DNA from: a phage
Assembly: GCA_012690745.1 (NCBI GenBank)
Contig: GCA_012690745.1_4086.2
Direction: 5' to 3' (one strand)
DNA length: 64,000 bases
The notes beneath the pieces are model-generated. The model made no database searches, was not told where the DNA came from, and saw nothing but the letters and a program-made list of their open reading frames with translations. A program made the position numbers and the translations under genes. Every line of letters begins with the position of its first letter. Within the stretch, counting starts at the first letter, position 1. Shown here one piece after another: positions 19,740 to 33,701 of this stretch.

Positions 19740-20150
19740 TTAAACACAAGTAGACAGGGGAAGCTCCTAGTGAACAACCTTTATGTACAGGCGAATTGTT
19801 AAAATTCAGCCTGGACAAATGCGATCACTAGGATTCTCCCCAGGCTAAACCTCGTAATCATAGGTAGTCATAAGTAATCATATATAAACATTTATATGAG
19901 CACCGTAGAATCACAGAATGATTATATATGATTCAGTACTGATTAGTATAGACAAGATTGCTCAAGAATGCACGGAAATGTGTGTGAATGATTCAGTACT
20001 GATATGCCACTAAGTAGGCAGAGGAAGTCTGCCGTACTTTGTAGTTTCCAAGCTCCTTTTCCATTTTGCAAATTACATCAAATGTAATCAAAAGTAATCA
20101 CGCAATGATTAGTACTGAATTATTACTTTCATCTTAATTTCAATTACCCC

Positions 20151-20168: not shown

Positions 20169-20589
20169 ATTCAATTACCCCTTGAGGCTCCAGCAAAAAG
20201 TTGGTTAGTACTCCATCCTAAATCTGGATCGTAAAAATTTTGGAGTACCTATGAAATAAAAGTTGGATCTTCGAAAGTTGAAATTTACGTTGGGACGTTT
20301 ATGATTTGTGGGATATAATGATGATTGTAGTCGGGTAGTTCTCAAGAATATCAGTACTGAAAGATGAAAGAAAGTTATTGACATTATGATTCAGTACTGT
20401 ATAATGTTCTACATAGAGAGATGAGTTGCTGCGAACAATTCATTTACTCTACCTCCTGTCGTGAGACAGTACAGAAAAGATAGTTCCTCCTGTGGTGGTA
20501 CATCTTTTTGAACCTCATATGAAAATCGTAATAACAGTACTGATATTAACAGAATGGTATTAGTACTGATTTTAATCTAAAGCATTATG

Positions 20590-20609
20590 CCACCAGCACA
20601 AGCTGGTGG
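20590..20609. other. palindrome carrying Chi octamer on both strands
   Basis: CCACCAGC-ACAA-GCTGGTGG. Confidence 0.5.
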
Positions 20610-20796
20610 ATTCCCTCTAACAGTATTCAGTACTACATGATGGTCTTCATCCTCCTAGGGTAACATAGTGAGGGCTATGATGGCAGTACTGAATACTCCC
20701 TTTCAAAAGATAGATCTATGGTATAGTACTGACGGATTTTGGGTGTAGTTACCCTGGATGGATTTTGGGCGTAGATATGTCTAGCCCTCCAGAAGT

Positions 20797-20959
20797 CTGG
20801 AAGTAAAGATGGCTATCCATCTAGACGGCTAAACGGCTAGATTTCTGGATGGCTAGACGTTTGGACGGCTAAACGGCTAGATGGTTACACGTCTGGAAGT
20901 ATAGACGGCTAGACGGCTAAACGGCTAGATGGTTACACGTCTGGAAGTATAGACGGCTA
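20797..20959. repeat. iteron-like direct repeat cluster
   Basis: 48-bp unit beginning GACGGCTAAACGGCTAGATGG tandemly repeated at 20864-20911 and 20912-20959; partial copies 20797-20842. Confidence 0.6.
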
Positions 20960-21581
20960 AATCAAAATTTTATTTTGTTTTTTCCAATAGTTCCCCTACC
21001 GCGTCGGGGTAAATTCCCCAGCAGTATCGAACGTTAGATTTTTCTGAATCTGGAATCATTATCTTATAAACTGGGGGCAATGTCAACGGCCTGGACGGAT
21101 ATTTTTAAAATTTTTTTCAGTACTGAATTTTGGGCGTAACTATGCACCCGGTGGGCTTGAGTCTTTCTCGACTTGATGGAACTATTATACAGTACTGAAA
21201 AAATAAAGCAATACCCTGGAAGCAAAAAAGTTTTAATTAATTTGCTTGCTATCCTGGGCCGGACTATGGTACTATATTTCAGTACTGAGAAAGTGCGTTT
21301 ACCTGCTAGGGTGCGGGAGTGTATCCTTTTTTTATATCTTGAATTTTGGGCGTAATTCCGCACCCTCTGGGGTTTCCGCTTTCTCACGTCTATGTAGTAA
21401 TTATACGCTTTTTCAGGATCAAGTCAATACCTAAAAACAAAATAATTGAAAATAATTTAACGCGTTTAAACGGCCTGTAAAGCCCTGGAATGATTGGAAT
21501 GGTGCAAATGTATAGCTTATGTGTATTAATGCGTTAGAATGCGTCTGAGGCCGTTTTATGGGGTGTAGTAGTGATTTGGTT

Positions 21582-21672
21582 GATTCAGTACTGAATAATA
21601 GTACTCCTATATAGAAAGATAGTTCCCCTGGATTGATTCAGTACTGAATAATAGTACTCCTATATAGAAAGA
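21582..21672. repeat. 38-bp direct repeat x2
   Basis: GATTCAGTACTGAATAATAGTACTCCTATATAGAAAGA at 21582-21619 and 21635-21672. Confidence 0.6.
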
Positions 21673-21703
21673 AAACTATTTTAAAAGTATTTGTAGAAAG
21701 TAC

Positions 21704-21731
21704 TTGCACCGTACTGATAAAAGCGTATAAT
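21704..21731 (+). promoter_or_regulatory. early-type sigma70 promoter
   Basis: TTGCAC-16-TATAAT then GTTTTACATC and 5'UTR hairpin. Confidence 0.5.
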
Positions 21732-21786
21732 GTTTTACATCGAGAGCGGGAACACTTCCCGCTACACTTTAAGAGAGATTAATACG

Positions 21787-22149
21787 ATGGCAACTCAAAT
21801 CACCAAAATTATTGCTAACCTGGTTAACTTCCGCGACGAGATGAAAGATCTTCCGGCGGCGACGGTTAAAACTCACATTGACGCATACCGCGAACTGATT
21901 AAAATGCTGCCGCTTAAGCGTGAACAATACGCCGCTACCGTGATGCTTGATGCGATGATCCATAAGATGATCGCCAGTGATTTGACGATGGTTTATCAGT
22001 ATATGGGCGAAAATTTCGCGGTGTGTAGTAAGCCAGTACCAGGGATGGCAACAACTGAGGAATTGCACGGCTTAAACTTAAAACAAGATGCATGGGATAA
22101 TATGCCTCGTTTCCTGGTATGGGCTGACAGTGGCAAAATTTACAAATAA
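21787..22149 (+). CDS. hypothetical protein (120 aa)
   Basis: ORF track 21730..22149 trimmed to MATQITK; the upstream ATG lies in the promoter -10. Confidence 0.6.
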   Translation: MATQITKIIANLVNFRDEMKDLPAATVKTHIDAYRELIKMLPLKREQYAATVMLDAMIHKMIASDLTMVYQYMGENFAVCSKPVPGMATTEELHGLNLKQDAWDNMPRFLVWADSGKIYK

Positions 22150-22163
22150 GTTTAATAAAGTAC

Positions 22164-22191
22164 TTGCAAACTATGTTTAATGGCGTATAAT
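22164..22191 (+). promoter_or_regulatory. early-type sigma70 promoter
   Basis: TTGCAA-16-TATAAT. Confidence 0.5.
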
Positions 22192-22244
22192 GTTTTACAT
22201 CAGGTGGGGAATAGTTCCCCACTATATAAGAGGATTAAAAAAAA

Positions 22245-22484
22245 ATGGCTAAATCAAAAATGTTCTTAGGTCACAAAAACAAAACTCATTGGAATGTAAG
22301 CCTGTGGATTAATAACGATGAGGGATTGTATCGGTTGGCCCTGGACTTTATTGCCGCCAATACTAATCGCAATGATGCGGCCCGTCATATGATGTTATTT
22401 TTAGAACAGACTGGACAAGATAAAACACCGGACGGATTCAAATATAGCACTACTGCGATCCGTGCGGCGATGGTTGGAATGTAA
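22245..22484 (+). CDS. hypothetical protein
   Basis: ORF track. Confidence 0.6.
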   Translation: MAKSKMFLGHKNKTHWNVSLWINNDEGLYRLALDFIAANTNRNDAARHMMLFLEQTGQDKTPDGFKYSTTAIRAAMVGM

Positions 22485-22570
22485 TAGAATTTATTTAAAG
22501 TACTATCATTTTTTTGCGATAGTACTTTATAATAGTGTTTTATTCATACACCAACGATAAGGGCAACAGC

Positions 22571-22837
22571 ATGAATATTAAGTATTTTGCGACGCGTGAA
22601 CAAGCTCGGATCGCCGCACGCCAGGACGGGGCAACGTTTAAAGATATGGGAGCGGGATCGGCAAGTGGTAAACGTTGGGCCATTGTAAAGCGTAGTACGG
22701 CCAGATCATTACAGTACTGGTTAGCGGCCTTAAAAAGTCCCGATAGTGTATCGCGTCGAGTGGTAGAAATAAAGCTCGACCGAAAGGGCAACCGCGTGAC
22801 CGTGTACCGTACTAAAAAGATTGCAGTACTTGAATAA
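22571..22837 (+). CDS. hypothetical protein; paralogue of 35052..35447
   Basis: trimmed to MNIKYFATREQARIAAR; shared FATREQARI...TFKDMG...DRKGNRVTVY. Confidence 0.6.
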   Translation: MNIKYFATREQARIAARQDGATFKDMGAGSASGKRWAIVKRSTARSLQYWLAALKSPDSVSRRVVEIKLDRKGNRVTVYRTKKIAVLE

Positions 22838-22844
22838 AAAGTAC

Positions 22845-22872
22845 TTGCAAACTATGTTTAAAGGCGTATAAT
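22845..22872 (+). promoter_or_regulatory. early-type sigma70 promoter
   Basis: TTGCAA-16-TATAAT. Confidence 0.5.
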
Positions 22873-22924
22873 GTTTTACATCGAGAGCGGGAACTCTTCC
22901 CGCCTATAACCTGGAGTAATAAAA

Positions 22925-23155
22925 ATGACTAATATGTATATGACTGAAGTTAAAACCGTAAAAGATACTACCACGAATAAAACTACTTACTTACAGCGGA
23001 TCTGTGGTGTATGGCAACGTATCAGCAAATCAAAGTACTTTAAATTAACATCATATGCAAACCGTTCTGATTCATTCAGTACTGAAATAAAAGGTAATAA
23101 AGTACACCAATACGGCACTTATTATTATTACAGCCTGGACGCGATTGCAGTATAA
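22925..23155 (+). CDS. hypothetical protein
   Basis: ORF track. Confidence 0.55.
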   Translation: MTNMYMTEVKTVKDTTTNKTTYLQRICGVWQRISKSKYFKLTSYANRSDSFSTEIKGNKVHQYGTYYYYSLDAIAV

Positions 23156-23185
23156 GCAGTTTACAAATCTTTACAATTGCCGGTA

Positions 23186-23214
23186 TTGACTTATTTTGTC
23201 AGTACTGGCATAAT
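23186..23214 (+). promoter_or_regulatory. sigma70-type promoter upstream of a structured noncoding element
   Basis: TTGACT-17-CATAAT. Confidence 0.45.
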
Positions 23215-23404
23215 GTATTCATTGGCAGATAAGCCGTAGCCCATAGGGTGCGGGAGTGTATCTATAGAAAAATTAGTTTAGTATAGTTACAATTGTGCAC
23301 CCGGTGGGTTAGCTGTTGTCATGGGGTATATTATGCCAGTACTTGATAATGCTGTCAATACTTTTTTTTACTATCCAGTACAGAAAACTATTTTTAAAAA
23401 GTAC

Positions 23405-23432
23405 TTGCAAACTATGTTTAAAGGCGTATAAT
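23405..23432 (+). promoter_or_regulatory. early-type sigma70 promoter
   Basis: TTGCAA-16-TATAAT. Confidence 0.5.
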
Positions 23433-23522
23433 GTTTTACATCAGGACGGGGAACGAAATAAGTAACTTCCCGTTAAGTAGCCCAGGAGTAAGGCACACGA
23501 AAAACTCCCCTGATAAAATAGT

Positions 23523-23550
23523 TTGACAAATGTTTTTAAAAGCGTATAAT
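23523..23550 (+). promoter_or_regulatory. early-type sigma70 promoter
   Basis: TTGACA-16-TATAAT. Confidence 0.5.
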
Positions 23551-23582
23551 ACTTACATCAACTACTGAATGAGGGTTATAAA

Positions 23583-24194
23583 ATGAAAACTATCACTACT
23601 ACTACTTTCGTTATGGATTTTTCTGAATTGAACGCAGAACAACAAACGTCAGCTATCGAACTGGTTCGGGAACGTGAAAAAAACTCAAACGACAATTATT
23701 TTTCTGAAAGTGAAATTGAATACTATAAAGAAACAGTACTACCGGAATATGGCATTAATGACGCTGAAATACAATTCAGTGGTTTTTGGTCCCAGGGTGA
23801 CGGTGCATCAATCAGTACTGACCACGTTGACGCAGTGAAGTTTTTACGCAAGGTTAGAGCGTTAACTAAGTATCGCTCAATCCGTCACCTGCTGAATGAA
23901 GATGAATTATCTATGAGGGTACAGCGTTCTCAATCCCGCTACTCACACGAAAACACTGTAAGCGGGTACATTGAATCGGGGTACACTGATTTAACAGCAA
24001 AACAGGAAGCGTTAGCCAATGAGCTTGAGGAATTGCTTACTGTTACTATTCGTGAATTATCTCGCAAGTTGTACCGTGATTTAGAGAATGCATATGAGGA
24101 TCAATTCACTACTGAGAACATCACGGCACTGATCGAGGGTAACGAGTATCAATTCAATGTTATTGATGGCGTAGTAGAATCAATCGCATATTAA
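23583..24194 (+). CDS. hypothetical protein (203 aa)
   Basis: ORF track; SD GAGGG. Confidence 0.65.
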   Translation: MKTITTTTFVMDFSELNAEQQTSAIELVREREKNSNDNYFSESEIEYYKETVLPEYGINDAEIQFSGFWSQGDGASISTDHVDAVKFLRKVRALTKYRSIRHLLNEDELSMRVQRSQSRYSHENTVSGYIESGYTDLTAKQEALANELEELLTVTIRELSRKLYRDLENAYEDQFTTENITALIEGNEYQFNVIDGVVESIAY

Positions 24195-24249
24195 TTTAGT
24201 ACTGAGATAATGGCGGGGAATGGTTCCCGCCTTTACTGAGGAATATCTA

Positions 24250-24537
24250 ATGAGCAAAGTAATTAGCTATACAGTATTAAGCAAGTCATTATCTATTAGC
24301 CAGTGCACTGATGGTTATTGGCTTTATGATGAATCGCGTGGCATGAATTTAGCTATGCGTGCAAAAACTGCTGAGGCGGCGTATCTTGAGGCACTGGAAT
24401 ACTACCAGGAACGATTAAAGGAAGTAGAAAACGATTATAATAACCTGAAAGCGAAAGTAGATCATTTCGTCGGGCAATTCGTTGACGATGACGAGGAAGA
24501 CGGGCACTACTGCGACCGTTGCGGATCTTACAGTTAA
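24250..24537 (+). CDS. hypothetical protein
   Basis: trimmed to MSKVISY; SD GAGGAA. Confidence 0.55.
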   Translation: MSKVISYTVLSKSLSISQCTDGYWLYDESRGMNLAMRAKTAEAAYLEALEYYQERLKEVENDYNNLKAKVDHFVGQFVDDDEEDGHYCDRCGSYS

Positions 24538-24554
24538 GTACTAAGGATTATCTA

Positions 24555-24761
24555 ATGAGTGATTTAATTGAACGTATCAAAGAGCTTGAAGAAAAAGAAT
24601 TACAGTTAATCGGATTGCGTAATAAAGTTTATTCAGAGCTTGGAGGCTTCATACAGGCTTGGGATAGTGGTGATCCTGATGCTTTACCTGCTAACCGCCA
24701 GGCGATGATCAATGATGTGAGAAGTGTCTTTGATTATGTTTTAAAAAGTACTGGACACTAA
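24555..24761 (+). CDS. hypothetical protein
   Basis: trimmed to MSDLIERIKELEE; SD AAGGA. Confidence 0.55.
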   Translation: MSDLIERIKELEEKELQLIGLRNKVYSELGGFIQAWDSGDPDALPANRQAMINDVRSVFDYVLKSTGH

Positions 24762-24779
24762 GCAATAAAGGCGTATAAT
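24752..24779 (+). promoter_or_regulatory. possible sigma70 promoter (weak -35)
   Basis: TGGACA-16-TATAAT. Confidence 0.35.
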
Positions 24780-24831
24780 ACTTTATATCGAGAGCGGGAA
24801 TAGTTCCCGCTACTAATGAGGAATACTACAA

Positions 24832-24996
24832 ATGAATACTTTTACCTTCGCTCAATTGAACGCCCTGGATGTATTGTCTGATGCTTTGCGGGATGCAACT
24901 GAAAGCGGTTTATTTGACAATGTTGACATTCACCCTGATGTAATTAATAATTTTTGTGATGCTATCGCAGAAGTACTGGAAGATCTAAAAAAATAA
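24832..24996 (+). CDS. small hypothetical protein (54 aa)
   Basis: manual ORF MNTFTFAQLNALD; follows promoter, hairpin and SD GAGGAA. Confidence 0.45.
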   Translation: MNTFTFAQLNALDVLSDALRDATESGLFDNVDIHPDVINNFCDAIAEVLEDLKK

Positions 24997-25006
24997 TAGA
25001 AAGTAC

Positions 25007-25034
25007 TTGCAATTAGTTTTTAGTACTGTATAAT
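25007..25034 (+). promoter_or_regulatory. early-type sigma70 promoter
   Basis: TTGCAA-16-TATAAT. Confidence 0.5.
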
Positions 25035-25084
25035 AGTTTACATCAAGGGGAGAAATGGTTCTCCCTGGTAATGAGGAAAATAAA

Positions 25085-25306
25085 ATGGCTAATATCACTA
25101 CTCTTTCCCAACTGGAAGCACTGGTTAAATCTATGCGGGAACATGCCGACAATATCGGCGTAAAAGATCCAGCCGTTTGCTTCTGCGACGAAATGAATGA
25201 TGATACACTGGTAATAGCAGAAGTACAAGATATTTCTAACTATTCATCGCGTTACACTGGCGGCGTAGCAAATAAAGGTGACTTCTGTTTATACCTTACC
25301 AAATAA
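25085..25306 (+). CDS. hypothetical protein
   Basis: trimmed to MANITTLSQ. Confidence 0.6.
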   Translation: MANITTLSQLEALVKSMREHADNIGVKDPAVCFCDEMNDDTLVIAEVQDISNYSSRYTGGVANKGDFCLYLTK

Positions 25307-25474
25307 CAACGCGGGGAGATAATAACTCCCCGTTACTTTTTCAGTACTGAATCATTTAATAGACGGATCTCGGCACCCTGTGGGTTAGTGACTGTATCGT
25401 CTTTATGTAGTAATTATGCCAGTACTGGATGCAGTTGTCAACAATTATTTTTCAAATACTTTTTATTAAAATAC

Positions 25475-25502
25475 TTGCTATTAGTTTTTAAACGCGTATA
25501 AT
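25475..25502 (+). promoter_or_regulatory. early-type sigma70 promoter
   Basis: TTGCTA-16-TATAAT. Confidence 0.45.
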
Positions 25503-25549
25503 GTTTTGCATAGGGGGAGCGGTTCCCCTGGTAACTAAGGAATAAGAAA

Positions 25550-25786
25550 ATGGTCGAACAAATCAAATCAACGTCTTCGAATGTAACGGGAACGGTAGCA
25601 CACTTTACTAGTGATGAATCGCGGGGCGTTCCCTATTGTGCTGTACATGTAAACACTGAGGGTAACTACTGGTTTACGGTTTACGGATCATATTCATTTG
25701 GACGGCCAGGGCATCAAAAAATTCTGGATAAAGTACAACCAACGGGTAAAAATATCACTGCCGAAATGTTTTATAAAAAATCATAA
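25550..25786 (+). CDS. hypothetical protein
   Basis: ORF track. Confidence 0.6.
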   Translation: MVEQIKSTSSNVTGTVAHFTSDESRGVPYCAVHVNTEGNYWFTVYGSYSFGRPGHQKILDKVQPTGKNITAEMFYKKS

Positions 25787-25789
25787 AGT

Positions 25790-25817
25790 ACTTGATAATA
25801 GTTTTTAGTACTGTATA
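25790..25817 (+). promoter_or_regulatory. early-type sigma70 promoter
   Basis: TTGATA-16-TATAAT. Confidence 0.45.
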
Positions 25818-25870
25818 ATATTTTACATCGCAAGGGGGAGCGGTTCCCCCTGGTAACTAAGGATAATCAA

Positions 25871-26170
25871 ATGAAAATTGCAATCATCGCCCTGGCTTTA
25901 TCTGTTTCCTCTTTCGCTGTTAATGCGTCGTTAGATGTAAGTAGTGAAAAATTCATTCAGTGCACTGTAGCGATGACCAATGAAAGTACTGGCGAGATTG
26001 TTTTAAAGGATTTAGAGATCCAGCCCGAAGCATTTAAAAACGGGCCGTTCCATGAAGAAGACGAAAACGGTAGCACAACAATTTATTACGATGCAAGTAC
26101 TAAACGCGGTTCGGTCACTGTAATGGATACTGAGAAAGTAACGCACACAGGAGTAATTAACTGTTTATAA
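25871..26170 (+). CDS. small secreted or periplasmic protein (predicted signal peptide)
   Basis: N-term MKIAIIALALSVSSFAVNA is a typical Sec signal. Confidence 0.6.
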   Translation: MKIAIIALALSVSSFAVNASLDVSSEKFIQCTVAMTNESTGEIVLKDLEIQPEAFKNGPFHEEDENGSTTIYYDASTKRGSVTVMDTEKVTHTGVINCL

Positions 26171-26187
26171 TCTAGTACTGAATCACT

Positions 26188-26219
26188 AGCCCACTTATAC
26201 AGTGGGCTTTTTTGTTTTT
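26188..26219 (+). terminator. intrinsic terminator
   Basis: AGCCCACT-TATAC-AGTGGGCT then TTTTTTGTTTTTG. Confidence 0.65.
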
Positions 26220-26266
26220 GTAGTATCGTAGTACTGCATACTTTGAAAATAGTTTTAAAAAAGTAG

Positions 26267-26294
26267 TTGACATTACCAGGGAAAAGCGTAGAAT
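26267..26294 (+). promoter_or_regulatory. sigma70-type promoter
   Basis: TTGACA-16-TAGAAT. Confidence 0.45.
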
Positions 26295-26408
26295 GTATTA
26301 CATCAAGACGGGGAACATTAAGTAGACCGCCAGTAAGTCGAATGAAAAACTGGACACGTCAAACAAACTTTGATAAACTAACTTAAACTTTAATTGAGGA
26401 TTTATAAA

Positions 26409-26891
26409 ATGGCTAATGTAAAATCATTTCTGAAAGCACTGATTTCTAACGATACTGTTATTGCTGCTGAATTGCTGGCTGACCTGGATAATGATACCAT
26501 GAAAGCAGTACGCAACAATTTTAACATTGCTTACAGTGAAGCGAAAGAACTACAAGCCAAAAAGGTAGCAGAACTGGAAGAACAGAAAAAAGCCCGTGAA
26601 GCAGAACTGCAAGCAACAATAGAAAGTATTCAGGCGGCGGTGTCTGGTTTAGATCTGGAAGTGGTTATTGAAATGGCACATAAAGCCCTGGCGGTTAAGT
26701 ACGGTGAAGATAAGCCGGAATCTAAGCCTAAAAAATGGATTCAAGAACGTGTTACTGTTGTCCTTGATAACGGGGAAGAACATTTGATTCCTGTACGCGG
26801 TAACTGCATTGCGGTAGTACTGGATGCAATCAAAGAAAGCGGTATGACTCGCGAGGAATGGATCGAAGCTCACCGCAAAGTTGAAGCATAA
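26409..26891 (+). CDS. hypothetical protein (coiled-coil-like, KE-rich)
   Basis: trimmed to MANVKSFLK. Confidence 0.6.
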   Translation: MANVKSFLKALISNDTVIAAELLADLDNDTMKAVRNNFNIAYSEAKELQAKKVAELEEQKKAREAELQATIESIQAAVSGLDLEVVIEMAHKALAVKYGEDKPESKPKKWIQERVTVVLDNGEEHLIPVRGNCIAVVLDAIKESGMTREEWIEAHRKVEA

Positions 26892-26912
26892 CAATTAAAG
26901 TACTGAATCACT

Positions 26913-26942
26913 AGCCCACTGTATAAGTGGGCTTTTTTGTGT
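26913..26942 (+). terminator. intrinsic terminator
   Basis: AGCCCACTGTATAAGTGGGCT then TTTTTTGTGTTT. Confidence 0.65.
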
Positions 26943-27092
26943 TTATCGTTTACCAGGCCACCAGCACCGCCTAGAATCGATTCTAACGCATTAAACTGAT
27001 TATCTGATGCATCGCCCTAGCTGGTGGCGTTAAGGTCGTTAGAATGCGATTGAGGACGTTTAAAGTATTTTGCAAAAAGTAATAAAAAGTAC

Positions 27093-27120
27093 TTGCACGA
27101 TTAAGAGATTAGCGTATAAT
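27093..27120 (+). promoter_or_regulatory. early-type sigma70 promoter
   Basis: TTGCAC-16-TATAAT. Confidence 0.5.
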
Positions 27121-27175
27121 GTTTTACATCGAGAGGGGGAAACGGTTCTCCTTCCAAATCAAAGGAATCAAAACA

Positions 27176-27403
27176 ATGGCTATCGTAATCGCTTATGTAA
27201 CTGGTACTACTGGCACTTCTTCTACTGTTGCTGTAATTACCAACAAGAAAGGTGCGGAATTACATTCTGCAATGGATACCTGGGCGGTAAATGAGTTCGG
27301 TCAGTGGGCAAGTGTAGCATATGTTGAAACCTATCAAGTGCCAACCATTAGCTTAACGGATCTCGGTGTAGATCGTATCCTTTGCCTGGATGAATTAAAT
27401 TAA
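27176..27403 (+). CDS. hypothetical protein
   Basis: trimmed to MAIVIAYVTG. Confidence 0.6.
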   Translation: MAIVIAYVTGTTGTSSTVAVITNKKGAELHSAMDTWAVNEFGQWASVAYVETYQVPTISLTDLGVDRILCLDELN

Positions 27404-27411
27404 AAAAGTAC

Positions 27412-27439
27412 TTGCAAAGTAAATCAGATAAAGTATAAT
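27412..27439 (+). promoter_or_regulatory. early-type sigma70 promoter
   Basis: TTGCAA-16-TATAAT. Confidence 0.5.
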
Positions 27440-27489
27440 ACATTACATCAAGGGGAGAAATGGTTCTCCCTGATAATGAGGAAACTAAT

Positions 27490-27633
27490 ATGAAAACTTG
27501 TCAATGTGGTAAAAAATCTATTACTGGTTTAAAGCGGGGCGTTGCTCTTTGCCAGTACCATTATAATTTACAAGTATGGGGTAAAGAATGGGCCGACCAG
27601 GTGGAAGCAGCAAAGAAAGCAAAAAGTAAGTAA
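27490..27633 (+). CDS. small Cys-containing protein (47 aa)
   Basis: manual ORF MKTCQCGKKS...; SD GAGGAA. Confidence 0.45.
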   Translation: MKTCQCGKKSITGLKRGVALCQYHYNLQVWGKEWADQVEAAKKAKSK

Positions 27634-27653
27634 AATTATTATCACAGTACTAT

Positions 27654-27681
27654 TGACATAGATTGATAGTACTGGCATAAT
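27654..27681 (+). promoter_or_regulatory. sigma70-type promoter
   Basis: TTGACA-16-CATAAT. Confidence 0.5.
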
Positions 27682-27714
27682 AGATTTTATCAAGACAACT
27701 AAGAGGAAATTAAA

Positions 27715-28059
27715 ATGGCTAATATCAACACTATCGCAAAACAAAATATCAACCTGTCTTCTGTTGAAGTTGTACATATTGCCGCTCGGCGTTGGTTCCA
27801 GGCTTCATATGGTAACACTTATTTCTCTTTAAGTGTAGACGTAGAAATTGATGGTAATTTTATTGAAGTAGTAAACGTGCCGTTCCAATATGGATACGGG
27901 GATCACTTTGACACTGTAGCAATGGAAGAATTTAGCAAGGTTATTAATATGGAAGATAAAGAGTTTTTACGCGGTTCTTATCTTTCCCGTTTTTGCCGTG
28001 ACAATAATATCACTGTTTACAGTTCGGTAACTGATGTTAAACGCAAAAAAGATCTTTAA
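27715..28059 (+). CDS. hypothetical protein; paralogue of 34629..34952
   Basis: shared RW..GNTY..YGYG...RKKD(L/M) features. Confidence 0.6.
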   Translation: MANINTIAKQNINLSSVEVVHIAARRWFQASYGNTYFSLSVDVEIDGNFIEVVNVPFQYGYGDHFDTVAMEEFSKVINMEDKEFLRGSYLSRFCRDNNITVYSSVTDVKRKKDL

Positions 28060-28139
28060 TTAGCTTTACTTTATGCAGATACTTTGATACAGTGTCTGCA
28101 TAGGGGAAAGAAATTAAATCAACTTAAGAGGATAGTAAA

Positions 28140-28409
28140 ATGAAAAATATCAGTACTTTAATCGATGCAGGTACACATGTTCGTCGGTCTATGGTTGCAA
28201 CCAGTTCTACAAAACAAGTACCAAGCGGTTATCTTGTATTTGTGCACGATGGAAAACTCCTGGAACGTTCAATCAATTTTGATGTTAAAAACAATTGCCG
28301 TTTTATTATCTTTAAGCGTGAACAATATAAAATTGATTTGCCAGCGAAGCCCATTAGCGGGGCGTACAGCGTACAATCATTGTTTGAGCGTCAACCTTAC
28401 ACCTATTAA
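28140..28409 (+). CDS. hypothetical protein
   Basis: ORF track; SD AAGAGGA. Confidence 0.55.
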   Translation: MKNISTLIDAGTHVRRSMVATSSTKQVPSGYLVFVHDGKLLERSINFDVKNNCRFIIFKREQYKIDLPAKPISGAYSVQSLFERQPYTY

Positions 28410-28460
28410 TCAAAACATCGTTAGCGGTCGATTTAGGCCGCTTATATTGGGGATTATACC

Positions 28461-28733
28461 ATGAACGTTAATCAAGTACTGAATGAGATCGAAAGCATCA
28501 TTAAACCGATGAAGCGTACTGATGCTATGTTAACACCGGAAGAATGCCGCCTTTATGAGCGTTACAGCGTCGAACAAGTCCAGGCAATGGCTATGGCTAC
28601 CCCAGCCGTTTCACCGCCTGAGAATGCGTTACAGGACGTTACAGGGGATTATATCATTAATCCAGTACTAGGGAAGATGACTGCAATCACCGAAGATCAA
28701 AAAGACTACTTAAGCCAGTACTTAAAAGGTTAA
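28461..28733 (+). CDS. hypothetical protein
   Basis: ORF track. Confidence 0.55.
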   Translation: MNVNQVLNEIESIIKPMKRTDAMLTPEECRLYERYSVEQVQAMAMATPAVSPPENALQDVTGDYIINPVLGKMTAITEDQKDYLSQYLKG

Positions 28734-28738
28734 TTAAT

Positions 28739-28948
28739 ATGCTTACTGTACAGGATAAGATCGACATCTTAAAGGTTAATATGTATGTGATTGATGCCGT
28801 ACCTGGTAAAGTATTTGCATACGATGACACCACTGTAAGCAATTTCTACTATAGCCAGGACGTGGGGGATCTTTCTGTACAGTCGGTTATTGAAAATGTA
28901 GTTAATGCAGCGTATGAGCATTTACTTTCAAATAGTACTTGCAATTAG
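28739..28948 (+). CDS. hypothetical protein
   Basis: ORF track. Confidence 0.5.
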   Translation: MLTVQDKIDILKVNMYVIDAVPGKVFAYDDTTVSNFYYSQDVGDLSVQSVIENVVNAAYEHLLSNSTCN

Positions 28949-28966
28949 TTTTTAAACGCGTATAAT
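28939..28966 (+). promoter_or_regulatory. early-type sigma70 promoter
   Basis: TTGCAA-16-TATAAT. Confidence 0.5.
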
Positions 28967-29017
28967 GTTTTACATGAAGGGGAGAAATGATTCTCCCCAC
29001 TAATTAAGGAATATGAA

Positions 29018-29164
29018 ATGAAAGCATCAAAAAAGAGTAATACTAAGAAAGCATGTTCACCTTTCGCTGGGGTATTCCCTTTACGTTTCGTTGATGAAGT
29101 GGTTTCCTACCCGCCGGGCCTTACTCCTGAGATGGTAGAAAGTTTGCGTAAATCTAAAAAATAA
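29018..29164 (+). CDS. small basic protein (48 aa)
   Basis: manual ORF MKASKKSNTKK... Confidence 0.4.
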   Translation: MKASKKSNTKKACSPFAGVFPLRFVDEVVSYPPGLTPEMVESLRKSKK

Positions 29165-29167
29165 TAC

Positions 29168-29195
29168 TTGCAATTAGTTTTTAGTACTGTATAAT
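29168..29195 (+). promoter_or_regulatory. early-type sigma70 promoter
   Basis: TTGCAA-16-TATAAT. Confidence 0.5.
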
Positions 29196-29245
29196 TGTTT
29201 ACATAGAGGGGGAAATGGTTCTCCCCTGATACAAGGAGAATCAAA

Positions 29246-29398
29246 ATGAAACAATATAATGCTCGGTTTGATGTTACTATCGGTAACGGCAAAGGTCAAT
29301 TTTCTTTCAGTACTCGACGCAGTTATACAGAAAACTTCCTGCGTAATTGTGCACTGACCGCCGCTCAAATTAAACATTATTTTCAGGCTAAAAAATGA
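29246..29398 (+). CDS. small protein (50 aa)
   Basis: manual ORF MKQYNARFDV...; SD AAGGAGAA. Confidence 0.45.
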   Translation: MKQYNARFDVTIGNGKGQFSFSTRRSYTENFLRNCALTAAQIKHYFQAKK

Positions 29399-29484
29399 AA
29401 TCATTAGCTTATTACAGTTCGGCCCTGGTCGGTGCATTGATCGCGGCGTTGTTAGTAACCTATCTATTCTTTATGGTGATTTAA
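29395..29484 (+). CDS. small hydrophobic peptide (29 aa)
   Basis: manual ORF MKSLAYYSSALVGALIAALLVTYLFFMVI; ATGA overlap. Confidence 0.35.
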   Translation: MKSLAYYSSALVGALIAALLVTYLFFMVI

Positions 29485-29622
29485 ATGAATCCTAACGGTA
29501 TAATTTACAGTACTCCTAAAACGAAAGCAGATAAAGCGAAAGCACGTAAAGCGAAAGTAAAGGAGTACATCAAGCAAGGCATGACGCGAAAGGCGGCGAT
29601 TCTGAAAGCTAAAAATAAATGA
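29485..29622 (+). CDS. small lysine-rich protein (45 aa)
   Basis: manual ORF MNPNGIIYSTPKTKADKAKARKAK... Confidence 0.35.
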   Translation: MNPNGIIYSTPKTKADKAKARKAKVKEYIKQGMTRKAAILKAKNK

Positions 29623-29630
29623 AAAAGTGG

Positions 29631-29660
29631 TTGACTTCGGTCAGCCATTTTGCTATTATA
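29631..29660 (+). promoter_or_regulatory. repeated hairpin-promoter module, copy 1
   Basis: TGGTTGAC-TTCG-GTCAGCCA hairpin overlapping TTGACT-18-TATTAT. Confidence 0.45.
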
Positions 29661-29763
29661 TATTCATTGAGAGATAGCTCACTAGCCCACAGGGTGCAGG
29701 AGTGTATCTATTGTATAATGATTGAGTACAGAAAACTATTTTAAAGTATTTGATAAAAAGTAC

Positions 29764-29791
29764 TTGCATACTATCTCAATAGGCGTATAAT
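29764..29791 (+). promoter_or_regulatory. early-type sigma70 promoter
   Basis: TTGCAT-16-TATAAT. Confidence 0.5.
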
Positions 29792-29842
29792 GTTTTACAT
29801 CGCAAGGGGAAACGGTTTCCCCTGGTAATAAGGAAACGAATC

Positions 29843-30184
29843 ATGACTATTGCAATTGCTCAATCTAACTTTGAAAACGAAATCATCGCTCAGGCACTGC
29901 GTTTAAATGATGGTCGGGCCGAAATCAATTACGGTTTCAATAGTGGTGGATGTGAAAAATATCAGTACTTTGTAACGGCTGATGGCTGTGTCCTGGGTAT
30001 CAATACAGTTATTGTAAACATTCAGAAAATTAATTTCAATGATCCAGACGATAGCCAGTTTTACATCACGGGCGTAGACGTGAACTATGAGGATGACTCA
30101 CTAACTGATGATCACACTGGCGAGAAGTTAGAAAGTGCATACGGTGAAGATGATTATCAGTCCGGTCCAGAAGATTTCGAATAA
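29843..30184 (+). CDS. hypothetical acidic protein
   Basis: ORF track. Confidence 0.6.
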   Translation: MTIAIAQSNFENEIIAQALRLNDGRAEINYGFNSGGCEKYQYFVTADGCVLGINTVIVNIQKINFNDPDDSQFYITGVDVNYEDDSLTDDHTGEKLESAYGEDDYQSGPEDFE

Positions 30185-30198
30185 TATTAAAAAATAGT

Positions 30199-30226
30199 TT
30201 GACAATAGTTTTTAGTACTGTATAAT
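30199..30226 (+). promoter_or_regulatory. early-type sigma70 promoter
   Basis: TTGACA-16-TATAAT. Confidence 0.55.
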
Positions 30227-30279
30227 AGTTTACATCAAGGGGAGAATAGTTCTCCCCACTAACAGAGAGAGAAAACAAA

Positions 30280-30492
30280 ATGGCTAATATCCGCACTGTA
30301 CTGAAAAATGCAAAACAAGTTTTATTTTCTGATCATGAAAATTTCAACAAGGATATCACTGGCGTTCGGAATATCAAAGATGTAAAAAATGTTATGGGTA
30401 TCTATTGCAATATGAAACGTGTTGGCACGTTCGGCGATAAAGTACTATACCAGGCAGGGGATTACAATTTTACACTGACTATCATTAACTAA
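30280..30492 (+). CDS. hypothetical protein
   Basis: ORF track. Confidence 0.6.
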   Translation: MANIRTVLKNAKQVLFSDHENFNKDITGVRNIKDVKNVMGIYCNMKRVGTFGDKVLYQAGDYNFTLTIIN

Positions 30493-30511
30493 AAATATTA
30501 TCACAGTACTA

Positions 30512-30540
30512 TTGACAACGTTTGATAGTACTGGCATAAT
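30512..30540 (+). promoter_or_regulatory. sigma70-type promoter
   Basis: TTGACA-17-CATAAT. Confidence 0.5.
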
Positions 30541-30583
30541 AACTTTTATCAAGACAACGCATATTAATTTAAGGAATACTAAA

Positions 30584-30763
30584 ATGGCTATTATCGCAAA
30601 AACTGAAATCATCGGCCTGGATTCTATCATCATGACGTTTGAAGATCAAAAAGGGATGTATGTAGTTTCCTATGGTGATTATGTTCGGGAGTATGAAACA
30701 GTAGACGAAGCCTTTGAAAGTTACATTCGCCAGGTTAATAAAGCATACGACGATTACCGCTAA
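30584..30763 (+). CDS. hypothetical protein (59 aa)
   Basis: trimmed to MAIIAKTEI; SD AAGGAA. Confidence 0.5.
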   Translation: MAIIAKTEIIGLDSIIMTFEDQKGMYVVSYGDYVREYETVDEAFESYIRQVNKAYDDYR

Positions 30764-30790
30764 AATATATTACCAGTACTATTAAATCTA

Positions 30791-30818
30791 TTGACAATGT
30801 TTGATAGTACTGTATAAT
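30791..30818 (+). promoter_or_regulatory. early-type sigma70 promoter
   Basis: TTGACA-16-TATAAT. Confidence 0.55.
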
Positions 30819-30862
30819 AACTTTTATCAACAGTAGTTAACTTAACCTAAGAGAGAAAAATC

Positions 30863-31006
30863 ATGACAGCATTAGATTCATTCATCGACGCAGTACTGGC
30901 AAAAACTGGCGAGGATCTGACCGCAGAACAATACGCGATGATCGAGCAATGCCAGCAAAACGGTAAATCGGTGAAAGATACTGTTAAGATTATCCGCAAG
31001 ATGTAA
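30863..31006 (+). CDS. small protein (47 aa)
   Basis: manual ORF MTALDSFIDAVLAK...; SD AGAGAGAA. Confidence 0.4.
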   Translation: MTALDSFIDAVLAKTGEDLTAEQYAMIEQCQQNGKSVKDTVKIIRKM

Positions 31007-31012
31007 GATTAT

Positions 31013-31040
31013 AGCCCACTGGTTAACGCTGGTGGGCTTT
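31013..31040 (+). terminator. terminator-like hairpin containing a Chi octamer
   Basis: AGCCCACTGG-N6-CTGGTGGGCT then TTT. Confidence 0.4.
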
Positions 31041-31111
31041 AATCATTTACCCTATACAATGCCAGTACTAAACCGTTTAACTCGTTAGAATGCGTTACAG
31101 GACGTTTAACA

Positions 31112-31309
31112 ATGATTAGCATGAAATCAGTACAAAAACAAATAGAAACATTATCAAAAATTAAACGTAAACAGTACTCCTTAGAATATACAATCAATGG
31201 TAACTATCATCTAATGAAAGAAAATAATTTTATAGTCATTGATGAATCATTGCAGATCATTAGTATAGTACTGAAAGCATTAATCAATGACAGAAAAAAG
31301 TTAAAATAA
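31112..31309 (+). CDS. hypothetical protein
   Basis: ORF track. Confidence 0.5.
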   Translation: MISMKSVQKQIETLSKIKRKQYSLEYTINGNYHLMKENNFIVIDESLQIISIVLKALINDRKKLK

Positions 31310-31314
31310 TCTAT

Positions 31315-31343
31315 TGACAAATTATGCCAGTACTGGCATAATA
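31315..31343 (+). promoter_or_regulatory. sigma70-type promoter
   Basis: TTGACA-17-CATAAT. Confidence 0.5.
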
Positions 31344-31638
31344 CTTACATCAAGACGAGAACGTCACTAACCCATAGGGTGCACAAATGTAACTATATAA
31401 TATCGATCAATAAATGATCAAAAAAGTACTGGATCAATTTAGCATAAGGCGTATAATTCTGATCAAATCTTGATCAAAGGCAATAAACGTAGTTGAAATT
31501 ATATAGAAAGTACAAAGGCGTTACCATTCGTGGTAATGCTGGGGAATATGTAGTATCATACGGTTTGAATAAAATCAGTACTAGTAGTATTATTGTAGCA
31601 TTACAGTACTATAGTATTTTTATAATGAGGTTAAAATA

Positions 31639-31896
31639 ATGGCTGTTGGATTCGCGAAGGACGGGGCCGAGCAAGACGAGATTAACGCAGTGATTCAGGC
31701 CGCTGTAAACCACGCTAGAACGCAAATTAACGCACAAATAGAATCACTGATACATTGCCTCGACTGCGGCGATAAAATCCCTGAGAATCGCCGCCTGGCC
31801 GTTAAGGGGTGTAAGTACTGCATCACTTGCCAGGCTGATCATGATAGCATATTCAAACGCAATCCCCGTAATTGTTGGCATAGATCTATGAGATAA
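31639..31896 (+). CDS. TraR/DksA-family C4 zinc-finger protein (putative)
   Basis: C-x2-C-x17-C-x2-C (HCLDCGDKIPENRRLAVKGCKYCITC); SD TGAGG. Confidence 0.55.
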   Translation: MAVGFAKDGAEQDEINAVIQAAVNHARTQINAQIESLIHCLDCGDKIPENRRLAVKGCKYCITCQADHDSIFKRNPRNCWHRSMR

Positions 31897-31902
31897 AAAG
31901 TA

Positions 31903-31930
31903 TTGACAGTGCTGTTAGTTAGTGTATAAT
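31903..31930 (+). promoter_or_regulatory. early-type sigma70 promoter
   Basis: TTGACA-16-TATAAT. Confidence 0.55.
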
Positions 31931-31959
31931 ATTTTATATCTTAACTGAGGATTGAAATC

Positions 31960-32316
31960 ATGGGTATACAACATATCACGCGTACTACAGACAATGGTGA
32001 GATCACTGGCTATCAAGTACAAGGCAAAGTAGCACAATTGCAGTACTGGTTTGTTAAACGTGGCATTGTTGCACCGGATCTTGATTATGATCGTGTAGCG
32101 TTTATTGATTCTCTTTATGTTGATCCCGATAATCGCGGTAACGGTGAAGGTACTGAATTAATGAATGCCTTTATTGATGCCGCCGATGATTCAGATTGTA
32201 TCATCTTAGAATGCGATACGGGAGAAGATAACGAGTTTAATCTTAAAGAATGGTATGAAAGTTTTGGTTTTGAAGTACTGATTAACTGTGAATATCCTAT
32301 AATGATTTTATCCTAG
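31960..32316 (+). CDS. possible GNAT-like acetyltransferase-fold protein
   Basis: IDSLYVDPDNRGNGEGTELM resembles GNAT motif A (R-x-x-G-x-G); weak. Confidence 0.5.
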   Translation: MGIQHITRTTDNGEITGYQVQGKVAQLQYWFVKRGIVAPDLDYDRVAFIDSLYVDPDNRGNGEGTELMNAFIDAADDSDCIILECDTGEDNEFNLKEWYESFGFEVLINCEYPIMILS

Positions 32317-33654: not shown

Positions 33655-33672
33655 AAAGATTTAAAAAAGGGA

Positions 33673-33701
33673 TTGACTCCGGTCAGTCCCTTTGCTATTA
33701 T
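33673..33701 (+). promoter_or_regulatory. repeated hairpin-promoter module, copy 2
   Basis: GGGATTGAC-TCCG-GTCAGTCCC hairpin overlapping TTGACT-17-TATTAT. Confidence 0.45.

Follow-up and report, generated by a model that had tools for sequence, protein, structure and literature searches.

Results

Four copies of a conserved box in the terminal-repeat region of a jumbo phage

The 64-kb stretch of phage DNA analysed here (GenBank assembly GCA_012690745.1, contig GCA_012690745.1_4086.2; referred to throughout as the window) belongs to a 121Q/PBECO4-type (Asteriusvirus) Escherichia coli jumbo phage of ~350 kb. In vB_Ec-M-J, a direct terminal repeat (DTR) is annotated at 1–21525, and its position 1 maps to window position 20013, which places the DTR-equivalent region at ~20013–40715. 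The genes of this region are small, most of them preceded by a ~99-nt cassette made up of a sigma70 promoter (AAAAAGTACTTGCAA-N17-GCGTATAATGTTTTACATC), a GC hairpin in the 5′ untranslated region, and a Shine-Dalgarno sequence (AGGAA..ATG); almost all jumbo-phage terminal-repeat genes are of unknown function. We describe here a separate element, a short box that is much rarer than these promoter cassettes and occurs four times on the plus strand of the window, at 21532 (J1), 27037 (J2), 28617 (J3, within a coding sequence, CDS), and 31083 (J4). Every copy falls in the first 11 kb of the DTR-equivalent region, at 1.5, 7.0, 8.6, and 11.1 kb from its left end, respectively, and all four lie on the early-gene strand. 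The full and partial copies, with their scores in the profile R1 described below, are as follows.

21459–21483, minus strand: inverted half-copy matching model positions 21–45, the second half of the box (12.5 bits, E = 0.008), ~45 nt upstream of J1
21525–21563 (core 21532–21556), plus strand: box copy J1 (34.2 bits), at the inner end of the gene-free DTR leader
26980–26997, minus strand: inverted half-copy corresponding to the first half of the box (9.7 bits, E = 0.06), ~35 nt upstream of J2
27028–27070 (core 27037–27061), plus strand: box copy J2 (42.1 bits)
28429–28447, plus strand: possible weak half-box, CGATTTAGGCCGCTTATATTG (7.5 bits, E = 0.31)
28461–28733, plus strand: CDS of 90 aa that holds J3, without a PHROG match
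28610–28648, plus strand: box copy J3 (28.8 bits), inside this CDS
31074–31115 (core 31083–31107), plus strand: box copy J4 (39.8 bits)

The string CGTTAGAATGCGNNNNAGGNCGTTT is found with no mismatch at 21532, 27037, and 31083 and with three mismatches at 28617, where shuffled sequence gives an expectation of 0.00. A 20-mer, AGAATGCGTTACAGGACGTT, is the same at 28621–28640, inside the open reading frame (ORF) 28461–28733, and at 31087–31106 (expected 0.01), and the likeness between the coding copy J3 and J4 extends to ~47 nt with one indel. The coordinates and sequences given in the original prediction were all correct on re-reading. Its claim of a recurrence beyond chance also held in the scan of the window, which returned four copies against an expectation of 0.00–0.01 and revealed a positional pattern.

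Profile R1 is a sequence-only covariance model with a seed of 26 diverse boxes, window copies included, and was applied unfiltered to both strands of the entire window. The four full copies, all of them in the seed, scored 28.8–42.1 bits; beyond these, the scan of the 64 kb returned the two inverted half-copies, weak half-box matches, and nothing more. Upstream of J1, AAACGGCCT (21467–21475) is complementary to AGGCCGTTT within J1, and the inverted half-copy upstream of J2 falls within the palindrome TAGAATCGATTCTA. The half-box at 28429–28447 resembles the second half of a T5-like type-B box (95% over 20 nt relative to box B of phage T5). At 32206–32225, within the acetyltransferase gene 31960–32316, TTAGAATGCGATACGGGAG partly matches only the first half of the box (8.7 bits, E = 0.12), probably by chance.

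The box is an array of decamers phased with the DNA helix

Alignment of boxes from many sources disclosed a strand-asymmetric unit of ~45 bp composed of four to five decamers, each starting with CG(T/C)T. In J4 these read CGTTTAACT / CGTTAGAATG / CGTTACAGGA / CGTTTAACAA / TGATT. The short consensus is CGTTAGAAtGCG-wTnn-AGrn-CGyTTwA, and a wider version reads ...ttA-n-CGTTAGAA(t/a/c)GCG-(t/a)T-nn-AG(g/a)n-CG(t/c)TT(a/t)A.... Across a profile of 48 distinct sequences, conservation was strongest in the columns TTAGAA, GCG, AG, CG, and TT, with a 4-nt spacer and position 9 left free. Autocorrelation of CG and CGYT gave sharp peaks at 10 and 20 nt in jumbo-phage boxes and T5-like boxes alike. The box is a ~45-bp cis-acting DNA element whose decamers are phased with the helical repeat, and its conservation tracks DNA positions rather than codons or base pairs. 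The 25-nt box of the original prediction is real, and the actual unit is this longer series of phased decamers.

With at least three direct units at the helical period, the box qualifies as a phased direct-repeat array. Such arrays are familiar as iterons and operators, for example, the direct repeats bound by response regulators and the Cox boxes of phage P2. The likeness includes three to five direct units, the 10-bp period, one unit conserved best, and inverted partial copies nearby. The box differs in that its units are heterogeneous (CGTTAGAATG / CGTTACAGGA / CGTTTAACAA) and in that no cognate protein was found nearby.

Intergenic copies follow terminators

Each of the three intergenic copies (J1, J2, and J4) lies downstream of an intrinsic terminator or terminator-like hairpin. 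The features around them are listed below.

21308–21327, plus strand: terminator-like hairpin with a T-run, upstream of J1
26913–26933, plus strand: intrinsic terminator of gene 26394–26891, ~100 nt upstream of J2
27084–27120, plus strand: sigma70 promoter cassette (TTGCAC-N17-TATAAT plus a hairpin in the 5′ untranslated region), repeat families D4/D5
31013–31040, plus strand: hairpin AGCCCACTGG-TTAACG-CTGGTGGGCT followed by TTT, terminator of gene 30863–31006, read from the sequence; it holds a Chi octamer
31112–31309, plus strand: ORF of 65 aa (phrog_36844) with its ribosome-binding site inside J4; an annotated CDS in relatives

J1 closes the gene-free leader of the terminal repeat, which is ~1.7 kb long, ~1.5 kb from the DTR left end. 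J2 ends ~30 nt upstream of the strong sigma70 cassette at 27084–27120, which is a neighbour and not a part of the box. J4 starts 40 nt after the hairpin at 31013–31040; its AGGA (31100–31103) is positioned as the Shine-Dalgarno sequence of the next gene, which starts at ATG 31112, and a promoter scan detected no canonical sigma70 promoter between the terminator and this ATG. Including the other phages described below, the box is a low-copy element of gene-free or regulatory DNA in the early, terminal-repeat part of the genome, typically placed 30–100 nt past an intrinsic terminator, where it borders the next transcription unit. The order of terminator then box, in the same orientation, was seen for J1, J2, J4, T5 copy A, Stitch, Bas91/KBNP1711, outra/ECGD1, and 4MG/KpS8. 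Back-to-back inverted copies were seen at J1, J2, contig L033, Vibrio phage D138, and T5 B/A.

Conservation among Asteriusvirus relatives and the coding copy

All eight Asteriusvirus genomes examined keep J1, J2, and J4 in syntenic positions. J1 forms a conserved island in a variable leader, with 6 of 42 columns variable compared with 171 of 298 around it (p = 7e-8). The J2 orthologs of E9.1 (TAGAACGCG) and UE-S1 (TAGAAAGCG) carry TAGAAC or TAGAAA yet keep the box, and AGGACG is swapped for AGAGCG.

The coding copy is more restricted. UE-S1 lacks the segment ~28592–28713 of CDS 28461–28733, and 121Q has 16 nt in its place, so that J3 is confined to genomes with the long allele, the short alleles of 121Q and UE-S1 missing the ~110 nt that hold the box. 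In J3, TTAGAATG is changed to CTGAGAATG, which removes an in-frame TAG. A constraint on the codons of this copy beyond the needs of the protein, suggested earlier as a check, was not seen: 4 of 41 sites were variable in the box and 24 of 232 in the rest of the gene (p = 1; six long alleles, hence low power). In the CMSTMSU ortholog of this CDS (8616–8885), indels of −2 and −1 bracket the box and would place its segment in another frame; this may be a sequencing error, because the record is flagged UNVERIFIED.

The box recurs in the repeat regions of phage T5

Phage T5 (NC_005859) carries three copies of the same box.

5273–5314, plus strand: copy C, between T5.009 and hegG
6264–6298, minus strand: copy B, beside the palindrome CTGTATAAATATACAG, DnaA boxes, and promoter P11
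9341–9383, plus strand: copy A, 45 nt after the annotated terminator 9275–9296 and inside the annotated injection-stop signal

These place one box in each of the Repeat Regions 1–3 of the first-step-transfer (FST) DNA, which are three untranslated regions described by Davison (2020 preprint, 10.1101/866236). The literature on the T5 repeats and the injection-stop (iss) region (Heusterspreute 1987; Wang 2005; Davison 2020 preprint, 10.1101/866236), as far as examined, does not single out the box, and the preprint mentions neither the box nor LexA. Copies A and B each adjoin a CTGT-N8-ACAG palindrome (6214–6229 and 9411–9426) and paired DnaA boxes, and the two copies flank a hypervariable cassette region at 6209–9194 (10.1101/866236). 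A weak fourth match at 7560–7595 stands right after the annotated terminator 7534–7559; its first half is a perfect extended −10 element (TGnTATAAT; TTTTGTTATAATGCC), followed by the second half of the box. This extended −10 (7546–7600; TTTTGTTATAATG) lies upstream of T5.012 and is not annotated as a promoter.

To guard against circularity, T5-like phages were sampled through the neighbouring palindrome and not through the box, which yielded 32 distinct boxes. The hexamer was TAGAAT in 13 of the 32, and it was TAGAAA in 10 of the 19 of type B, in which the remainder of the box was still conserved relative to its varying flanks. The neighbouring sites match host-protein consensuses, namely DnaA boxes and the LexA-type CTGT-N8-ACAG. 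The palindrome of Vibrio phage D138 (CTGTATATCCATACAG, 6439–6456) and that of T5 (CTGTATAAATATACAG) fit the LexA SOS-box consensus and stand beside DnaA boxes of the proposed injection-stop signal, and the palindrome of phage Gary (after 3941) has one half-site mismatch (ATGT). Two back-to-back boxes in D138 head divergent gene clusters that have no good canonical promoters, and in Gary, as at T5 copy B, the box points toward the A2-A1 operon. Sigma54-type promoter sequences also occur in the pre-early regulatory regions of the Vibrio T5-like phages (TTGGCACGAAAATTGCC, D138 6519–6535; TTGGCATGGTTATTGCT, Gary ~3960–3980).

The jumbo-phage and T5 settings are alike in that the box occupies a terminal repeat with the earliest genes. 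They differ in arrangement, four same-strand copies over 10 kb in the jumbo phage compared with an inverted pair in T5, and in their neighbours, since no LexA or DnaA box lies within 400 nt of the jumbo-phage copies.

Occurrence in unrelated phages

A BLAST search was made with 56 nt around J4, and the matched loci were then read directly. Matches in gene-free DNA included the T5-like Salmonella phage SB9 (E = 2e-4) and the Kuravirus-like phages Bas91 and CHD5UKE1 (E = 7e-4), along with Justusliebigvirus (outra, ECGD1), RaK2, KP13-7, and Vequintavirinae (4MG, KpS8, WalterGehring). Many T5-like phages were also matched, with the location in the annotated terminal repeat. Outside its seed, R1 recovered a box in an E. 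coli genomic island (33 bits), those of WalterGehring (26.6 bits) and T5 copy C (25.7 bits), and an inverted box pair in a 249-kb metagenomic contig. Vibrio T5-like phages picked by homology of the A2 protein, not by the box, scored 19.1 and 18.2 bits (E = 3e-5 and 6e-5).

Across families, no homology was detected outside the box, and the 400-nt flanks share nothing. The box of outra/ECGD1 is in a convergent intergenic region, and that of RaK2 is antisense to early genes. In 4MG and KpS8 there is no −10 hexamer, and the second half of the box is identical to J4 at 18 of 18 positions. Kuravirus-like phages present the layout gene, terminator, box, and then a gene-free region of 1.8–1.9 kb. In this region (Bas91 2448–4271; KBNP1711 1784–3750) we observed three or more sigma70 promoters (TTGACA-N17-TAATGA/TAAATG), with GCTCTTTAAmAAT, a sequence similar to an rrn-type boxA, after each.

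Comparison of all DTR ORFs with the T5-like, Kuravirus, and other box loci by tblastn returned RaK2 homologs only. PHROGs assigned the genes neighbouring the box to lineage-specific families of unknown function, and homologs of the T5 DNA-binding protein A2 were found in T5-like phages only. Sequence-string searches and the T5 and phiEco32-like papers examined returned no description of the box. A literature search for T5 and phiEco32 transcription maps returned no transcription start site data at any box-bearing site.

Comparison with known sequence elements

The box matches neither the LexA box (CTGT-N8-ACAG) nor the DnaA box (TTWTNCACA) consensus. Compared with the rrn/lambda antitermination element boxA, a NusB/NusE site (GCTCTTTAACAA), it agrees at 8 of 13 positions at best, and GCTC is not conserved across copies; partial resemblance is limited to some copies (GCTCGTTAGAAT, and CGTTTAACAA in J4), and the genuine boxA-like repeats of the Kuravirus-like phages are distinct from their box. 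No Rfam family matched any box at E ≤ 10, and a search for tRNA and transfer-messenger RNA genes found none. RNA folding z-scores for J1, J3, and J4 ranged from +0.5 to −0.1, not significant relative to shuffles, and the J2 region was marginal (z = −2.0/−2.6 relative to shuffles) because of its inverted half-copy. Predicted intrinsic curvature was unremarkable, the wedge-model angle at the boxes falling at the 42nd–95th percentile.

Other features of the terminal-repeat region

The ~99-nt promoter cassettes occur at many sites in 22146–31942 and beyond (e.g., 24989–25087, 29624–29651, 33666–33693), some with the −35 box in a stem-loop. This organisation, which is similar to that of the promoter-early stem-loop (PeSL) regulatory cassettes reportedly described in T4-type phages by Arbiol et al. 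in 2010, suggests modular shuffling. After J1 and ahead of the first DTR promoter, the 40 nt at 21580–21619 (TTGATTCAGTACTGAATAATAGTACTCCTATATAGAAAGA) recur perfectly, as a direct repeat, at 21633–21672, with a spacing of 53 nt. Chi octamers (GCTGGTGG / CCACCAGC) were observed in the leader (20580–20600) and next to J2 (26959–26966, 27020–27027) and J4 (31027–31034); two of them are in hairpin stems, namely CCACCAGCacaaGCTGGTGG and the terminator stem at 31013–31040.

A perfect sigma70 promoter (TTGACA-16-TATAAT) is located at 20378–20405, 365 bp from the DTR left end. The ~900 nt that separate it from the terminator-like hairpin at 21308–21327 hold no ORFs, and this interval may be transcribed as a non-coding leader. 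Within it, ~800–950 bp from the DTR left end, are ~17 tandem octamers (20795–20961; consensus CTAGACGG / AGACGGCT) in which a higher-order unit of 48 nt recurs 3.4 times. This array resembles tandem MetJ met-boxes (AGACGTCT), and it could equally be a packaging or terminase site. The palindromic octamer CAGTACTG, far commoner than the box, occurs 52 times in the window compared with 0.94 expected and is densest at 19.9–25.4 kb, often as TTCAGTACTGAA in the DTR leader or as TTTTTAGTACTGTATAAT between −35 and −10; its AGTACT core resembles the SlmA binding site.

Discussion

Conservation of the box across unrelated families with unrelated flanks is the signature of a recognition site. Our favoured reading, which we hold tentatively and with somewhat less than even confidence, is that the box may be recognised as duplex DNA by a sequence-specific factor that acts at the edges of early transcription units. 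The common constraint would be recognition of the duplex sequence itself, with some copies, clearly J4, apparently used in addition as a promoter and ribosome-binding site; at J4, gene 31112 would take from the box both its sole −10-like hexamer and its Shine-Dalgarno sequence. Such a factor would contact a single helical face across three to four turns. Because the loci compared share no phage protein that we found and their hosts extend from Enterobacterales to Vibrio, we think it most likely that the reader is a conserved protein of the host, or the host RNA polymerase. The box would probably serve as a boundary, either as a roadblock or insulator behind leaky terminators, as a modulator of the next promoter, or both. 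The proposal of a protein recognition site in the original prediction is supported in part. The recurrence is beyond chance, patterned, and conserved across unrelated families; no reader protein was found, and the option of a nuclease site is not supported.

Several observations weigh against a dedicated recognition site. No protein is common to the box-bearing loci compared, and no cognate DNA-binding protein is encoded nearby. A stringent pattern of the box gave a single match, about the chance level, in 596 Gb of bacterial genomes and was missing from 5425 of 5426 complete E. coli genomes, the sole carrier having it in an integrase-bearing genomic island. These counts led us to reject an origin of the box in the host chromosome, and they imply that the natural sites of any host reader must look different. 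The distances from the box to the terminator and to the next promoter are variable. Among the jumbo relatives, J2 and J4 lie in generally conserved DNA, and footprinting was significant for J1 only. Finally, a −10-like hexamer is present in the box, G occupies −14, and the A-G found 7–8 nt downstream is invariant; together with the divergent clusters of D138 and the position of gene 31112, this means that a promoter role could explain part of the conservation.

The main rival extends such a role to the whole element, and we consider it rather unlikely. It would make the box a −35-independent sigma70 promoter and leader cassette, read by host RNA polymerase on freshly injected DNA, with cGnTAGAAT as a near-extended −10, GCG as the discriminator, A-G as +1/+2, and AGGA as a 5′-proximal Shine-Dalgarno sequence, the copies beside a strong promoter or inside genes being in decay. 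TAGAAT is retained at J1 and J4 in all eight relatives, and J4 is the sole promoter-like sequence before gene 31112. The AGGA is followed 7–9 nt later by ATG, TTG, or GTG in J4, SB9, Bas91, outra, and J1. The E. coli deo promoters (deoP1/deoP2) read TGTTAGAAT, and the T5 match at 7560 (TGTTATAAT) has its perfect TGnTATAAT at the equivalent place; with these extended −10 promoters the box shares the cGnTAGAAT context, a GC-rich discriminator, a conserved purine 7–8 nt downstream, and a location that has a terminator before it and a gene behind it. The divergent gene clusters that lack good canonical promoters in D138 are headed by its back-to-back boxes, and at Gary and T5 B the LexA-type palindrome lies directly downstream of a box facing the A2-A1 operon, like a promoter-operator layout.

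As a −10 element, the hexamer gives a mixed picture. Its A-11 is invariant, whereas T-7, a base essential to such an element, is the least conserved hexamer position, as the T5-like samples and the J2 orthologs illustrate, and a plain sigma70 −10 fits poorly because this T is often lost. In 4MG and KpS8, the −10 is gone, yet the second half of the box is intact. The consensus just 5′ of the hexamer is C-G, so that G-14 is present and position −15 is C instead of the T of a TG motif; there is no −35 element, and the scan tool makes no promoter call. Many copies face no gene: outra/ECGD1, RaK2, T5 A, T5 C, and WalterGehring have no same-strand gene downstream. In contrast to extended −10 promoters, another 15–20 bp downstream are conserved across families.

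Improbable, in our view, is a junction or recombination hot-spot that shuffles early cassettes and was spread by recombination between co-infecting phages, with little function of its own, a reading that invites comparison with the PeSL cassettes of T4-type phages. In keeping with it, the coding copy sits in a segment present or absent among relatives, T5-like boxes B and A flank the hypervariable cassettes (6209–9194; 10.1101/866236), and the entire DTR region is a mosaic of repeated promoter cassettes. However, homology breakpoints between relatives are mostly not at boxes, no gene or flank homology travels with the box across families, 45 bp is short for homologous recombination, and the copy number is far below that of the promoter cassettes. 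Its strong conservation in the deep T5-like lineage, out to Vibrio phages, also speaks against this reading. Like a PeSL, the box is a short conserved regulatory sequence bordering small early genes in a hyperplastic region. It differs in having neither a stem-loop nor a consensus −35/−10, in numbering four copies instead of dozens, and in being common to unrelated families; we rejected it as a PeSL-type cassette, and the neighbouring D1–D7 cassettes do fit that description.

We likewise give little credence to an action on the transcribing polymerase or on RNA, in which the box would be a tandem array of elemental pauses behind leaky terminators or a mini-ORF leader with rare AGG/AGA codons. 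The elemental pause consensus and the effects of MRLR and AGG form the background to this reading. CG every 10 nt gives a repeated G-10/Y-1/G+1 on either strand, and the placement just past terminators agrees with such an array, but TTAGAA, the best-conserved block, is not accounted for by the pause consensus. Read from an embedded ATG, many copies encode MRYRTF-like peptides (MRYRTF..., MRSRTF*, MRLRPF...) in which codon 4 is always AGG or AGA. We dropped this mini-ORF because its ATG is not conserved in the unbiased T5-like and jumbo ortholog samples, since most T5-like type-B boxes lack it and the J2 orthologs have AAG or ACG instead. Codon 5 moreover differs between copies in its first base, whereas CG is constant, a pattern not expected of coding sequence, and the box has no RNA structure or Rfam match.

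A decoy or operator for a known host regulator is very improbable. The most specific lead was DeoR, whose operator is a 16-bp palindrome (TGTTAGAA-TTCTAACA); the K-12 DeoR operators were verified as TGTTAGAATTCTAACA and TGTTAGAATACTAACA. In the box, CGTTAGAA agrees with 7 of 8 positions of the half-site TGTTAGAA, and conservation stops exactly at the half-site border. The box holds this left half only, though, the palindromic partner TTCTAACA being missing in every copy, and the sole nearby palindrome (26972–26992) has four extra central bases. The second half, AGrnCGTTTA, is left unexplained, and Vibrio phages also carry the box. A site-specific nick of the T5 type can be dismissed for T5 and is extremely improbable for the jumbo phage: although the classical 7.9% nick is close to box A in the T5 terminal repeat, the annotated nick (9748/9749, minus strand; 5′-pGCGC in the GC hairpin GCAGGGCAATTGCCCTGC) is 365 nt away from this nearest box and shares no sequence similarity with it.

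Returning to the favoured recognition site, the kind of feature is a familiar one, a short cis-regulatory box, and what is notable is its distribution: a 45-bp non-coding element common to phages without shared flanks or, in the loci compared, a detectable shared protein. It ranges over T5-like phages from E. coli to Vibrio, two jumbo-phage genera, Kuravirus-like podoviruses, Justusliebigvirus, and Vequintavirinae, which suggests that virulent phages share a reliance on some host component within minutes of the start of infection. A bolder version, quite improbable at present, would see the box as a cross-family signal of first-entering phage DNA, a docking site for a conserved host factor, or for RNA polymerase bound non-productively, which would anchor, pause, or organise the incoming end of the genome. 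If so, the box would be part of the T5 injection-stop and early-DNA handling system, and 121Q/RaK2-type jumbo phages and Kuravirus-like phages would use comparable staged or factor-assisted DNA entry. If it is merely an unusual early promoter and leader, the box would still be useful for annotating early transcription units in jumbo phages. For T5, whose FST repeat regions and their injection-stop signal have been a functional puzzle since the 1980s, the box offers a small, precisely defined handle in a tractable phage.

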